From an uncultured archaeon (GTDB taxonomy: Archaea; Thermoproteota; Nitrososphaeria; JACIWG01), in NCBI GenBank assembly GCA_938034445.1, contig CALHLD010000001.1:840-64839 (forward strand): 64,000 bases of DNA. The letters run 5' to 3'. The notes beneath the pieces are model-generated. The model was not told the DNA's origin. It worked only from the letters and a program-made list of their open reading frames with translations, and searched no databases. Below, one piece after another: positions 47,329 through 58,348 of the stretch (position 1 is its first letter; every line of letters starts with the position of its first letter). Made by a program: the position numbers and the translations under genes.

Positions 47329-48333
47329 CTATTTTTTAGTGTTTTCTTCTGGATCTCCTATCCCTGCATCTGTTAGTGTGAATATTGCGTCAGCTTCCGC
47401 ATGATATGGGCTATCCACTATTCTCGCTATCCTATTCTTTCCAGATTTTCTCAAATATATCCTGTATGTGCTTGCGTGTGCCATAACGTGTCCTCCTGAA
47501 GCTTTAGTTGGGTCTCCGAAGAAAACATCTGGTGCCGCCTGGACTTGGTTTGTTATAACAACTGCAACCTTATAAATTTCTGCAAGTCTTAATAGTGTAT
47601 GTAGATATCTATTAAGTTTCTGCTGCCTTTCTGACAGCATTGACCTTCCAACATATTCTGCCCTAAAGTGTGTCATCGCCGAATCAACTATTACAAGCCT
47701 ACAATTTTCTCTCTCAATATAGTTTGGAATTTCTCTTGTTAATAGTTCTTGGTGGCTCGCGTTATACACTTTTCCAACAAATATTCTTTTTAAAACGTTT
47801 TCTGGATTTAATCCCCTAAACTTTGCTATACTCTCTATTCTTTCTGGCCTAAAAGTATTTTCTGTATCAATGTATACTGCTCCAGCATCAAGTCCCTTTT
47901 TCTCTCTTGGAAGCTGTACTGTAACACAGAGTGTGTGGCATATTTGTGTCTTCCCACTTCCAAATTCTCCATAAAATTCTGTTAACGCTCCAACTTCTAT
48001 GCCCCCTCCAAGTAGATTGTCTAGGTTGTTTGAGCCTGTTGTTATCCTGTCTATCGTAAGCCTCCTTTTCAGCACCTCACTCGCTACTGAAAATGAGCTT
48101 TCCATTAAACCGAGTTCTGTCAACTTTTTTCTAGCTTTGTTCGAAATCTCTACGGCCTTATCATAGCTTATTCCCAAAATTTCAACTAAGTCTTGGGGGC
48201 TGAATGTGAGAATTTGTCTTATGTCGTAGATTCCTGCTGCATAAAATTTGTCTCTAGTTGCGGGTCCGACTCCCTCTATATTTTCTACATCCAGTTCATC
48301 CTCTAATTCTTCTTCCTTAACCAACTTGACCAT
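47329..48333 (-). CDS. radA: DNA repair and recombination protein RadA
   Basis: 334 aa; N-terminal HhH domain (IEGVGPATRDKFYAAGIY), Walker A GEFGSGKTQ, Walker B LVIVDS. Confidence 0.95.
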   Translation of the reverse strand: MVKLVKEEELEDELDVENIEGVGPATRDKFYAAGIYDIRQILTFSPQDLVEILGISYDKAVEISNKARKKLTELGLMESSFSVASEVLKRRLTIDRITTGSNNLDNLLGGGIEVGALTEFYGEFGSGKTQICHTLCVTVQLPREKKGLDAGAVYIDTENTFRPERIESIAKFRGLNPENVLKRIFVGKVYNASHQELLTREIPNYIERENCRLVIVDSAMTHFRAEYVGRSMLSERQQKLNRYLHTLLRLAEIYKVAVVITNQVQAAPDVFFGDPTKASGGHVMAHASTYRIYLRKSGKNRIARIVDSPYHAEADAIFTLTDAGIGDPEENTKK

Positions 48334-54968: not shown

Positions 54969-56891
54969 TCATACATTTAATTTCAAGCTCTTTAATTTAC
55001 ATCCTCCTGGAGGTAATGCTTGAATAAATTCCTCGAAAGGTATATCCTTTACCACCTCACCAATTCTATCATAAAAATATCTAACAATCTTTTTAGCAAT
55101 AGAGTTTTTATCCTCATTTCCTGGTATAATAACTAAATAGTTTTCGCAATACTTCTTTAAAGCCTCTACAGGCCCACATACTACTGAATAATGTTCTTTT
55201 ACTTTAACAACTCCTAAAGCAAGTTCTATGGGCACATTTCTAATATAATTTCTTTTTCCACTAATCATGAACGCCCCCTTACCCATATATTGGCCGGAGG
55301 GTGCCTGTTTTGAAATCTGATGCTTATACACCCAATATGCTTCTCCAGCTGATGCGCCCATCTTCCAAAAGTTGCTGAATGAGACTGCTGCAATAGCAAC
55401 TTCTTTTAAGCTACTTTCTCCAGCCTTTATACCATTCTTTAGTATAAAGAATGGTGCGCCAACTATTTCAGCATGAAATACAATATCTTCATCTTCTAAA
55501 TATTTTTTGATTATTGCCTCATTAGAAGATGCGTCTCTTCCTCCTACTGCAAGCATATTTTCTGAGGTATAAAACCATCTGTATTTTTCAAACCATTCTC
55601 TTTCACGGGCCTTTTTACATTCTCTTGAAATTGTTTTTTCCTTTACTATAATCTTCTTCTCAATCTTCCCAATTTCTTTTTGCATCCCATTTATTGATTC
55701 CCCTATCTTCTTTGCATCCTCTACTAACCTTTTTGCAACATCATATATTTCTGAGCATGTTTTTAGCGGCTTATTTTTATCAAATTCGAAACCATATCTT
55801 TTGTAAACAATCTTTTCCAATCCATCTTCATCTTTTTCAATTTTTGCTGGTAAAAGTGTCTTTTTAAACTCTCCATAATCTTGGTATAATAGTTGTAGAT
55901 TTTCTTTTATCTTGTCCGCTAACTTGGTTAAAAAATTTTTGTCTTCTAACATCTCGTCTCTTTTATTAATGAGTTCGTCTATTGCTTTTCTTTTTTTCTC
56001 CTTTTCTCTAATTAGAGGATATAATGCTTCTTTCTCCTTTTCATGTAAAACTATTTTAGTAAAGATTTTGTCTAATGCTTCATTCAGATTTTGTATACTT
56101 TGGTGCACTAGCCCATTAACAGGTATTGGAGTTATGGAGAAATCAACTACCTCGTTGTCTGATAAATAAATTACTGGACTGATGTTTTCTTCTCTAAAAA
56201 ATTCTTTTATTTTCTCTAACATTTTTAAAATTTTTTCCTCGTCTAATTCGTTTCCCTTGGTTCCTTCTTTTACTTCTAACATTTTTGGTAGAATATCAAT
56301 ATACTTTTTTGGTAAGGCTAAATTTTTTCCAATCCATCTTCTAAAATCATCTTCATATTTTAGTAATGGTCTAAGATGTATAAAATCAACTTTAAGAGGA
56401 TCTAATCCTCTTTCAGGAGGTGTTAAATATTCTTTTCCAACCGCAATTGTTCTATGTCTTGTTTGGTAATATTCTAATGCTGTTAAAATGACGTTTTTTT
56501 CGTCAACTAAGATAATGTTTCCTCTACTAAAAAATTCTGCTATAAGATGTTTGGCTAAGCTTCCAATAAACTCGATATCAATTATCCTTTCTGTGCCAAG
56601 TTGTGTTATTTTAGAAATCTTTCCTCTAGCAAGAAAGTTTCTAAACTGTCTCAGTAGGGGGTCTGACCCTTCTTCCTCTAACTTTATTTCAGTAACCCAA
56701 ATTGCTCTACCATTATCTATAACCAGTCTTTTTTCAGGATACATTGGATGATGAAGTCTTATGACAAGTGTTCTATTCACTATTGCCCAGTAAACATTAT
56801 TAACATAATAATCTTTAAGATTGCCGTTTAACCATCTTGATTGGTGAAATAGTTCTATGTTGTTCAATGTCCGCTCTTCCATGGAGGTCAA
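54969..56891 (-). CDS. NFACT-family protein (Rqc2/NEMF/FbpA homologue, ribosome quality control)
   Basis: 640 aa; NFACT-N-like N-terminus, long coiled coil, DUF814/NFACT-R segment (WFYTSENMLAVGGRDASSNEAII); likely start ATG at 56882. Confidence 0.85.
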   Translation of the reverse strand: MTSMEERTLNNIELFHQSRWLNGNLKDYYVNNVYWAIVNRTLVIRLHHPMYPEKRLVIDNGRAIWVTEIKLEEEGSDPLLRQFRNFLARGKISKITQLGTERIIDIEFIGSLAKHLIAEFFSRGNIILVDEKNVILTALEYYQTRHRTIAVGKEYLTPPERGLDPLKVDFIHLRPLLKYEDDFRRWIGKNLALPKKYIDILPKMLEVKEGTKGNELDEEKILKMLEKIKEFFREENISPVIYLSDNEVVDFSITPIPVNGLVHQSIQNLNEALDKIFTKIVLHEKEKEALYPLIREKEKKRKAIDELINKRDEMLEDKNFLTKLADKIKENLQLLYQDYGEFKKTLLPAKIEKDEDGLEKIVYKRYGFEFDKNKPLKTCSEIYDVAKRLVEDAKKIGESINGMQKEIGKIEKKIIVKEKTISRECKKAREREWFEKYRWFYTSENMLAVGGRDASSNEAIIKKYLEDEDIVFHAEIVGAPFFILKNGIKAGESSLKEVAIAAVSFSNFWKMGASAGEAYWVYKHQISKQAPSGQYMGKGAFMISGKRNYIRNVPIELALGVVKVKEHYSVVCGPVEALKKYCENYLVIIPGNEDKNSIAKKIVRYFYDRIGEVVKDIPFEEFIQALPPGGCKLKSLKLNV

Positions 56892-56897
56892 CCAGAT

Positions 56898-57182
56898 ATG
56901 TTGACAGACACAAATAAACTCTTTTGGTTAAGGGTTGTTTTTGCAATTTTTGCAGGCCTATTTTCTGGGATAATGAATTTTAGTAACGAATCCGCATTGT
57001 TTGGTGTACTTACCATCATACTATTCTACTTATTATCCTATCTCATAGGAAAATATTATATATTTTCTGAAAAAAATGTAAGCAACTCCTCACTTTTCAC
57101 AACAGGGATAGGAACTTATATAATGCTATCACTGTTTATCTGGATCTTTTACTATACTCTTCACGTAAGCGGTTTCCTGTAA
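56898..57182 (+). CDS. Small three-TM membrane protein, EMC6/Rab5ip-like by eye
   Basis: 94 aa; AGLFSGIMNF, LFGVLTIILFYLLSYLIG and LFTTGIGTYIMLSLFIWIFYYTLHV parallel recalled human EMC6 segments. Confidence 0.4.
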   Translation: MLTDTNKLFWLRVVFAIFAGLFSGIMNFSNESALFGVLTIILFYLLSYLIGKYYIFSEKNVSNSSLFTTGIGTYIMLSLFIWIFYYTLHVSGFL

Positions 57183-57452
57183 CCTTTTTTCCTGTCGTTC
57201 AAAGTATGCGAATAACACTGTAAAATAGTCTATGTCAATCTCCTGTAACCAGTGACCTTCAACTAGTTTTAAAAAATTTTCTTTTAAACGTCTTATTTTC
57301 TCAATCTCCTTTTCAATTTCCCTATTTTTTTGTAAATATTTTATTGCATTTATTGCAAACGTTGCTCCAATAGAATTTTTTGCCATATTTTTTGCTTCAT
57401 CCCATTCTTCCTTTTCTAAACAATCTATTATATTTTCTAAATTTTCTATCAA
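57129..57452 (-). CDS. Uncharacterised small helical protein coupled to the RadA paralogue
   Basis: 107 aa; TTG start overlaps the stop of 57449..58348; E/K-rich helical; 3' end overlaps the convergent 56898..57182 ORF by 54 nt. Confidence 0.4.
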   Translation of the reverse strand: MIENLENIIDCLEKEEWDEAKNMAKNSIGATFAINAIKYLQKNREIEKEIEKIRRLKENFLKLVEGHWLQEIDIDYFTVLFAYFERQEKRLQETAYVKSIVKDPDKQ

Positions 57453-58348
57453 ATTACATCACTTATACCATAATCTGATACGCTTATCCTAAACTCCTCT
57501 ATCTTATCTCCTATTATAATTTTGGTTTTTACAAGTTTATCTTCTTCTATTAAAAATATTCTAGTTCCAATTATGTTTTCTGTAATAGAATTGTACTCTG
57601 ATTCATATGTGTCTGTTTCTATTTTCTTTATTAGGCTATTTAAAAGTAGGGTAATAATGTTATGTTTTATTGAAAGCTGGTTTATCCTTAACATAAAGTT
57701 TTCAAGCATGCGGTAATTATAGTATATTATGTTCTTTTTCTTTGAATTTGGTTTAAAAAAGTTTCCAATTTCATCAATTACGAAAAGTTTTTTGGAATGG
57801 TTGTCAAAATTTTTTTCTATTTCCTCAAGTATTTCTATTTGGTGTTTAATTGTATATGGTTTAAAAACTATAATTTTATCTAGGAACGAGTACTCTTTTA
57901 TTCCCCTATATTTTGCTAGTTCACATAATTTTTCAGGCCTAAAAATCTGGTTTGAATCATTATATATTATTAAATGGTTTTCGAAAGTTTTGATAAAGTT
58001 TAGTATCAAATTATATGAAAACAGAGTTCTCAAGTATCTTTTTTCACTACATACTTCAGTTATTTGGCCTGAACTTATTCCCCCTATCCTATCATCTAAT
58101 TCGCTTACCAGAGTGGGAACTGCTATTATCTCATGTTCAATTTTCCTAAACCTGTATATGCCCTTAAAGAGTTCTTCAAGTTTTGGGAAAATTTCTTCCT
58201 CTTCCTCTTCATTAAAATATTTTTTTATAATGTCATATGGTGCAAATAGTAGTTGGAGACATGTACGGATATTTTCTTTTTTCAACCCTTCAATTTTCTC
58301 TTGTGGAATTAAGCCACTATCCTCTAAGCTCATGTCATAATTGTTCAT
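57449..58348 (-). CDS. Full-length RadA/Rad51 paralogue with degenerate Walker A (predicted ATPase-dead)
   Basis: 299 aa, collinear with the radA in this window. [21 protein letters not shown] vs [43 protein letters not shown] vs TENTFRPERIESIAKFRGL; LFVIDE vs LVIVDS. Confidence 0.7.
   Translation of the reverse strand: [299 protein letters not shown]

Follow-up and report, generated by a model that had tools for sequence, protein, structure and literature searches.

A RadA/Rad51-family pseudo-ATPase, conserved together with a small helical partner, at a radA locus of hot-spring Nitrososphaeria

We analyzed a 64,000-nucleotide stretch of DNA from an uncultured archaeon (Thermoproteota, Nitrososphaeria, JACIWG01; assembly GCA_938034445.1, contig CALHLD010000001.1, positions 840 to 64,839), hereafter called the window. 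Besides a working canonical RadA, it encodes a 299-residue RadA paralog followed directly by a gene for a 107-residue helical protein (coordinates in Table 1). The 299-residue gene product belongs to the RadA/Rad51 family and is a conserved pseudo-ATPase that has kept the whole RadA architecture. The small protein is not special to this degenerate copy: throughout the Thermoproteota, it is the ancestral partner of canonical RadA in the operon. We propose, with a probability of about 0.55, that the radA copy in this operon turned into an accessory, ATP-independent protein that would act, in complex with the small protein, on filaments of the working RadA.

The paralog is recognized by the Pfam model Rad51 (PF08423) with an E value of 4.8e-16 and 59.2 bits, against a gathering cut-off of 22 bits. 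It stays below the cut-offs of both the NCBIfam RadA equivalog NF003301 (65.3 bits; cut-off, 259 bits) and the RadB model TIGR02237 (45.7 bits; cut-off, 172.4 bits), and its N-terminal domain is present. The KaiC-type profile PF06745, which served as a test for an aRadC/KaiC-like protein, did not match it at E values up to 1. Direct alignment with the canonical RadA of the window gives 21% identity across 218 residues (E value, 7e-12) and contains the shared FRPE[KR] and AK[YF]RG[IL] blocks that an earlier note on this DNA, made from the letters alone, had pointed out. The same note described the two proteins as collinear, including an N-terminal helical domain, and our comparisons agree. A family profile built from 12 orthologs aligns over positions 13 to 300 with full-length DMC1/RAD51 (E value, 2.8e-26) and matches archaeal RadA at about 1e-20 and RadB at 1.7e-14. 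Likewise, the AlphaFold2 (AF2) model (predicted local distance difference test score [pLDDT], 85.8; predicted template modeling score, 0.78), which consists of N-terminal helices at residues 8 to 60, a linker, and a RecA core, retrieves full-length Rad51/Dmc1/RadA chains in Foldseek over about 310 columns (E value, 6e-21; template modeling score, 0.68 to 0.70). Profile and fold searches, named in the note as a check for RecA-fold homology, thus place Rad51/RadA homology over the full length of the protein. The N-terminal domain is about 9 residues shorter than that of RadA; its second helix-hairpin-helix is missing, and an acidic stretch stands in its place. The linker that follows aligns with the polymerization motif GFxxA and may play that role. 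Its residue 61, at the position of the polymerization-motif Phe, is F in the genus of the window and V in the other genera.

The ATP site has degenerated. The Walker A motif GxxxxGK[ST] has no counterpart in the paralog: as the earlier note had read it, CSEKRYLRT replaces GEFGSGKTQ of the window RadA, with the glycines and the lysine of the P-loop lost. This odd P-loop is itself conserved among the orthologs as CSE[KRQ][RH][YHF]xR. In the AF2 model a helix begins at residue 104, straight after the strand at residues 96 to 101, so the phosphate-binding loop is predicted to be gone. The glutamate of the xxDTE block is a catalytic residue of RecA-family ATPases; at the corresponding position (YIDTENTFRPE in RadA), the orthologs have N, S, or Y and never E. 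Relative to DMC1, 6 residues are missing from the equivalent of the DNA-binding L2 loop, which also has neither the GG nor the His. Among the features that remain are the YxDxxxxFRPExL block, the hydrophobic residue (F/V) at the polymerization-motif Phe position, and the Walker B aspartate. The last of these is Asp192 of the Walker-B-like LFVIDE, which aligns with LVIVDS of RadA and whose retention had already been reported; D192 is invariant, and E193 is a glycine in most other genera. The site is likewise dead (GEAGSGMMQ, with VVNS for Walker B) in a separate full-length RadA-like protein, P0115, from an archaeon of high G+C content, so ATPase loss has occurred more than once among full-length RadA paralogs.

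To evaluate conservation, we searched all genomes of the source order, which is a single family of five genera. The paralog and the small open reading frame (ORF) are kept together in 9 of the 10 genomes and in all 5 genera, and the genome without the pair is 68% complete. None of our conclusions depends on the unpublished genome G117. The paralogs fall into seven protein clusters with 52 to 91% identity, all from metagenome-assembled genomes of hot-spring Nitrososphaeria. The family is narrow, since only 3 cluster representatives among the 1.84 billion scanned fall below an E value of 1e-30. Between the window and a congener (synonymous divergence [dS], about 0.5), the ratio of nonsynonymous to synonymous substitution rates (dN/dS) is 0.15 for the paralog, 0.10 for the small ORF, and 0.025 for RadA; for ArgRS, compared with a congener that is further removed (dS, 2.2), it is 0.044. 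The paralog and the small ORF are under purifying selection, and the paralog evolves at nonsynonymous sites about six times faster than RadA.

These data bear on the idea that the paralog is an AT-rich foreign gene of recent arrival or a pseudogene undergoing decay. Its catalytic motifs are lost, and its G+C content of 28.2% is the lowest among the 54 ORFs of the window (36.8 ± 3.6). The AT-rich patch that the earlier note had counted in single lines is real: G+C is 27.1% at positions 57001 to 58000, compared with 37.0% for the whole window. Yet the third-position G+C of the gene, 26.1%, is within one standard deviation of the ORF mean (29.6 ± 3.5), which argues that the patch stems from amino acid composition and not from foreign DNA. 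Namely, it reflects a fast-evolving protein rich in I, K, N, E, F, and Y. In other genera the G+C of the gene tracks the local value, and synteny is conserved on both sides. A disrupted ORF in relatives, the outcome expected of a pseudogene, was not seen in any of the five genera; the gene is intact under the selection described above, and its degenerate P-loop is itself conserved. The conservation data refute this explanation, to which we assign a negligible probability.

The small ORF adjoins the paralog everywhere in the source family, and the junction is constrained. Its TTG start overlaps the TGA stop of the paralog as TTGA, in agreement with the observation that it starts on the stop codon, and the longer TTGATA junction is conserved in all genera of the family. 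A Shine-Dalgarno-like element lies 5 nucleotides (nt) upstream of the start, and GGTGA or GGGGA occupies the equivalent position in other genera. In one species group (L084/L001; G006 and G003), a 1-nt indel before TTGA shifts the stop of the paralog, which gains seven residues (...DAVDRKFG) and overlaps the small ORF by 29 nt; the TTG start of the partner is unchanged. To judge from these features of the sequence, the two genes are translationally coupled. At the other end, the small ORF and the convergent gene for a 94-residue membrane protein overlap at their 3' ends by 54 nt in the genus of the window (positions 57129 to 57182 here) and by 8 to 18 nt in other genera; both overlapping frames are conserved between species.

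The AF2 model of the 107-residue protein has five helices (pLDDT, 88). A fold search on both ORFs, as the earlier note had suggested, was informative for the paralog and not for the small protein: Foldseek against the PDB returned a best E value of 3.8, and a wide fold search with VIA gave mainly generic helical hairpins (best Z, 5.8). A profile search of the PDB yielded a single weak match, to the tetratricopeptide repeat-like AimR (E value, 0.002). No Pfam family covers the small protein in any of the six lineages tested. In the ESM Atlas, the version from the window had no match, and the Bathyarchaeia version matched only unnamed clusters of "hypothetical protein." Nor did a literature search find any account of the partner or of the paralog within the searchable library.

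We then determined how the partner family is distributed. A narrow profile (A5) had almost no matches in the phylum; a profile widened stepwise (A6) detected the family in 149 of the 301 sampled Thermoproteota genomes and in 67 of 124 genera. The family was found in none of the 101 sampled Asgard genomes and in none of the 20 sampled genomes of a family that could be Sulfolobaceae. The operon context was examined in the 30 best-scoring loci. In 27 of these, a RadA-family gene lies directly upstream of the partner on the same strand, and at the RadA-partner junctions the stop-to-stop frames overlap or are separated by at most 12 nt. Outside the source family, all 26 upstream RadAs have both GE[YF]G[ST]GKSQ and an hhhhDS Walker B; among the partner loci with RadA, the degenerate copy occurs only in the source family. 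The earlier suggestion of a two-protein module agrees with the conserved coupling, but such a module is not exclusive to the degenerate copy, since the partner family follows canonical RadA in 26 loci. A conserved motif of the partner family, G[YF]F[SA]A, resembles the recombinase-binding motif FxxA. At the loci with the degenerate RadA upstream, and only there, this motif reads DYF[TS][VL].

The surroundings of the partner are conserved as well. Of the 30 best-scoring loci, 25 have the convergent membrane protein gene and 22 have the NFACT gene. In order, the block as a whole consists of fumarase (divergent), radA, the small helical protein, the membrane protein (convergent), and NFACT. A divergent class-I fumarase precedes the degenerate paralog in the other genera of the source family, and a fumarase also precedes canonical radA in Bathyarchaeia and in genome G294; in the genus of the window, argS takes its place. 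Since the partner and both flanks are shared with canonical radA loci, the degenerate paralog is the positional counterpart of the ancestral radA. The canonical RadA lies 9 to 11 kb away on the same strand in seven genomes of four genera. The radA-partner operon is thus a conserved arrangement, and apparently an undescribed one. In G294 (genus g119), the small gene stays with radA at a locus that has neither the membrane protein nor NFACT. This genus has two copies of the small protein, one behind radA and a second (G294:C1:1504198-1504503, L283) alone among unrelated genes.

In three other lineages of Nitrososphaeria that we examined, families f3 and f9 and the Methylarchaceae, the copy at the locus is also a divergent paralog with an intact Walker A, and the canonical RadA is encoded elsewhere in the genome. 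A contig scan for such second RadAs returned almost exclusively canonical RadA, with which the patterns are shared, and one true match, the Methylarchaceae locus L131. There, an intact-Walker second RadA is followed by a 111-residue ORF, a convergent small membrane protein, and NFACT, and the 111-residue ORF matches the small-ORF profile (hhalign probability, 88.8%; E value, 2.5e-6). The other members of the second-RadA group that we saw also keep Walker A, of the type GxSGxGKTQxCFQL. Since related lineages have full-length second RadAs with an intact Walker A, what is derived in the degenerate paralog is the loss of the ATP site and not its having kept the N-terminal domain. In ammonia oxidizers, the second RadA is about 230 residues long, has no N-terminal domain, and adjoins an LSm gene. 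No partner gene was found beside it in the two loci read, and the partner family was not found in any of the 61 sampled genomes of f5, the family of one of these loci and probably Nitrosopumilaceae. In the three loci read (L111, L121, and L131, from ammonia oxidizers and Methylarchaceae), the second RadA is divergent to an Sm/LSm gene. The second-RadA group is probably the "Unknown 2" RecA subfamily that Wu et al. 2011 (PMC3060911) named from Global Ocean Sampling data only; its members include RadA-like proteins of Cenarchaeum and Nitrosopumilus. Four other loci (L090, L096, L098, and L100), from some members of the source family, encode a second canonical full-length RadA type, with the N terminus MSVTVFDMEL... 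and the Walker A motif G[ED][FY]GSGK[ST]. Its carriers are G001, G008, G009, and G003, of which the G003 copy could be contamination; the genome of the window lacks it.

A quick tree computed without eukaryotes and without the longest rows joined the clade of degenerate paralogs to the second-RadA group, with a Shimodaira-Hasegawa-like approximate likelihood ratio test (SH-aLRT) support of 97 for the joint clade and of 86 for the sister relation, and set canonical RadA apart (96). The stem of the degenerate clade is very long, 2.2 changes per site. In a FastTree reconstruction, protein P0142 appeared as the sister of this clade; we dropped this placement as long-branch attraction, and P0142 looks like a eukaryotic Rad51 paralog.

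How does the paralog compare with known systems? With canonical archaeal RadA (for example, PDB 1pzn, 2bke, and 1t4g), it has in common the two-domain architecture, the fold, the FRPE-containing block, and the Walker B Asp, and with the canonical radA of other Thermoproteota, it has in common the operon position and the downstream partner gene. Unlike them, it lacks the P-loop and the catalytic Glu and has a shortened L2 loop. The second RadA of Nitrososphaeria occupies, in Methylarchaceae, the same locus beside a homologous partner, but it keeps Walker A. According to a review (PMC4080772), RadB and aRadC, which with the KaiC-like proteins are accessory archaeal members of the RecA superfamily, have kept the ATP-binding domain but have no N-terminal domain; in agreement with the earlier note, the paralog shows the reverse arrangement, an N-terminal domain with no ATP site. 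The genome also holds four or five KaiC/aRadC-like genes, separate from the paralog. In eukaryotes, the Shu complex (Csm2-Psy3) and the XRCC3 complex are Rad51-fold helpers or filament caps rather than recombinases, and for XRCC3-RAD51C-RAD51D-XRCC2, there is a precedent for ATP-independent capping by Rad51 paralogs (PMC7618403). We use these as a working analogy only: compared with the eukaryotic complexes, the paralog is of independent origin, keeps a full N-terminal domain, and has a small helical partner of its own.

Another system to compare is the PolB2 mutasome described in 2025 (PMC11791011), which combines the inactive RadA homolog iRadA, the small helical PPB2, and PolB2. As in the window, an inactive RadA homolog stands beside a small helical protein, and the pair could accordingly be a variant of iRadA-PPB2 that serves an orphan, exonuclease-less family B polymerase of 625 residues in this genome. 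This polymerase stands alone, has an intact DTD motif and a C terminus resembling a PCNA-interacting peptide (PIP), and is encoded in exactly those 9 of the 10 genomes that have the pair; among close relatives from a single family, however, such co-occurrence counts for little. In contrast to the paralog, iRadA has no N-terminal domain and is encoded with PPB2 and PolB2, and the paralog has no PolB gene next to it. Using a genuine iRadA-PPB2-PolB2 operon as reference (L229; also L231), we obtained hhalign probabilities of 0.25% for the paralog family against iRadA and 0.8% for the partner against PPB2. Examination of the three PolB genes of the genome showed that the 625-residue polymerase is PolB1-like (37% identity to the PolB1 of the genome) and not PolB2. 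Moreover, 26 other genomes have the partner family in the operon of a canonical radA. Together, these observations largely refute this explanation, which we reject as very improbable. The polymerase gene itself lies outside the window (G000:C5:96071-97942; locus L214:7069-8946, minus strand). It has no recognizable exonuclease domain, and PolB1 profiles match it only from about residue 190; it retains YGDTDS and ends in the PIP-like HAMLSNWF. Within a 61-genome sample of the class, its 190 N-terminal residues have strong matches only in the source family and one weak match in family f9 (E value, 1e-7).

The scenario that we favor starts with a duplication of radA in the Nitrososphaeria lineage, after which the copy left in the operon would have become the accessory second RadA. 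In the hot-spring source family, this operon copy would have given up ATP, with catalysis passed to the other RadA copy. The small protein would bind the RadA-family protein encoded just upstream of it, and the two proteins of the pair most probably assemble into a stoichiometric complex. Such a complex could contact the working RadA through RadA-type protomer contacts, with no need of ATP or of the L2 loop, and would help, stabilize, or cap RadA filaments, as a mediator, stabilizer, or end-cap. By analogy with eukaryotic Rad51 paralogs, as the earlier note had proposed, the paralog may be a noncatalytic scaffold. More tentatively, and at a little below even odds, we suggest that the small protein is an unrecognized RadA cofactor, widespread in the Thermoproteota, and that the source family represents an independent archaeal re-run of Rad51-paralog evolution: after the duplication, one RadA would have kept catalysis, and the other would have kept the cofactor, lost ATP, and become a noncatalytic mediator or cap.

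Several observations weigh against the filament-helper scenario. The residue lining the Phe pocket that we take to be equivalent to RAD51 A192 is Gly in the window RadA and an invariant Phe in the paralog, so docking of the RadA type is not assured. The Val that other genera have at the polymerization-motif Phe position is a further difficulty. With regard to descent, two earlier taxon sets did not decide whether the degenerate clade belongs with canonical RadA or with the second-RadA group, and because its stem is so long, the placement in the later tree is support and not proof. Finally, in 3 of the 30 best-scoring loci, from family f18, the partner stays with the membrane protein and NFACT in the absence of radA; its tie to RadA is therefore strong but not exclusive.

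The f18 loci would also fit a function of the pair outside recombination, in which the RadA fold has been reused as a scaffold and the small protein belongs with the membrane protein and NFACT. The loss of both the ATP site and the L2 loop points in the same direction. Yet the small gene overlaps or nearly overlaps the stop codon of a RadA gene in 27 of 30 loci, and the membrane protein gene is convergent. Similarly, the small gene of G294 remains with radA where both of these neighbors are missing, and the paralog retains YxDxxxxFRPExL, the most RadA-typical surface block. We regard a role outside recombination as quite unlikely.

A different possibility is that the pair acts on RadA as a brake, that is, as an antirecombinase or decoy that poisons or caps filaments or titrates RadA and so limits recombination. 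The expected anatomy would be the same as for a helper, a RadA-shaped protein unable to bind ATP at its own interface, and the review cited above mentions an archaeal RadA paralog with antirecombinase activity (PMC4080772, its reference 82). The sequence by itself does not separate positive from negative action. In most Thermoproteota, however, the partner accompanies the sole, working RadA, which fits a cofactor better than an inhibitor. Thus, we consider a brake unlikely and prefer the filament-helper scenario.

The features of the window that bear on this analysis are collected in Table 1. In the genus of the window, a gap of 46 nt separates the paralog from argS, and the TATA-like TTTTATAA in it is a candidate promoter of its own for the paralog, which would then have a short leader or none. 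Beyond the window (here positions 54969 to 58348), an Rqc2-type ribosome quality control gene and a small membrane protein gene stand beside radA in many families of Thermoproteota (L240 to L269).

Table 1. Features of the window around the RadA paralog and its partner (TM, transmembrane segments; NTD, N-terminal domain)
Feature	Position	Strand	Details and basis
Candidate promoter, TATA-like TTTTATAA	58375..58382	-	About 30 nt upstream of the paralog ATG, in the gap after argS
RadA paralog ORF	57449..58348	-	299 aa plus stop, ATG start, full-length, P-loop lost
N-terminal helical domain, RadA/Rad51 NTD-like	58169..58348	-	Residues 1-60; alignment, AF2, DMC1/RAD51 profile
Linker FKGIYRF	58148..58168	-	Residues 61-67; aligned to polymerization motif GFxxA, HMMER alignment to DMC1
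Degenerate P-loop CSEKRYLRT	58025..58051	-	Residues 100-108; aligned to GEFGSGKTQ of the window RadA
FRPE block	57926..57958	-	Invariant D131, F136, R137, P138, E139, L141; ortholog alignments
Walker-B-like LFVIDE	57770..57787	-	Residues 188-193; aligned to RadA Walker B LVIVDS
L2-loop equivalent	57581..57637	-	Residues ~238-256; alignments and AF2, predicted ordered
Shine-Dalgarno-like GTGAT	57458..57462	-	5 nt upstream of the small-ORF TTG
Start/stop overlap TTGA	57449..57452	-	TTG 57452..57450, TGA stop 57451..57449; sequence, conserved in genera
Small helical partner	57129..57452	-	107 aa, TTG start; AF2, dN/dS, family survey
Membrane protein, convergent	56898..57182	+	94 aa, three TM; weak Pfam EMC6, E value 0.0063, below cut-off
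NFACT/Rqc2-family gene, outer block member	54969..56891	-	Pfam NFACT-R_1 101 bits, NFACT_N 97 bits
Working canonical RadA	47329..48333	-	334 aa; NCBIfam RadA 433 bits (cut-off, 259 bits)

Little is known about the accessory factors of archaeal recombination, and the hosts of RadB and aRadC either lack the radA-partner operon or have not been examined for it. If our reading is correct, many Thermoproteota have a partner protein of RadA that has so far been overlooked. The source family would then provide a partner-bound RadA that is naturally stripped of its ATPase and DNA-loop functions, which would isolate the role of the contact between the partner and RadA. It would also offer a prokaryotic parallel to the origin of the noncatalytic Rad51 paralogs, in which the role of the partner could be tested with recombinant proteins.

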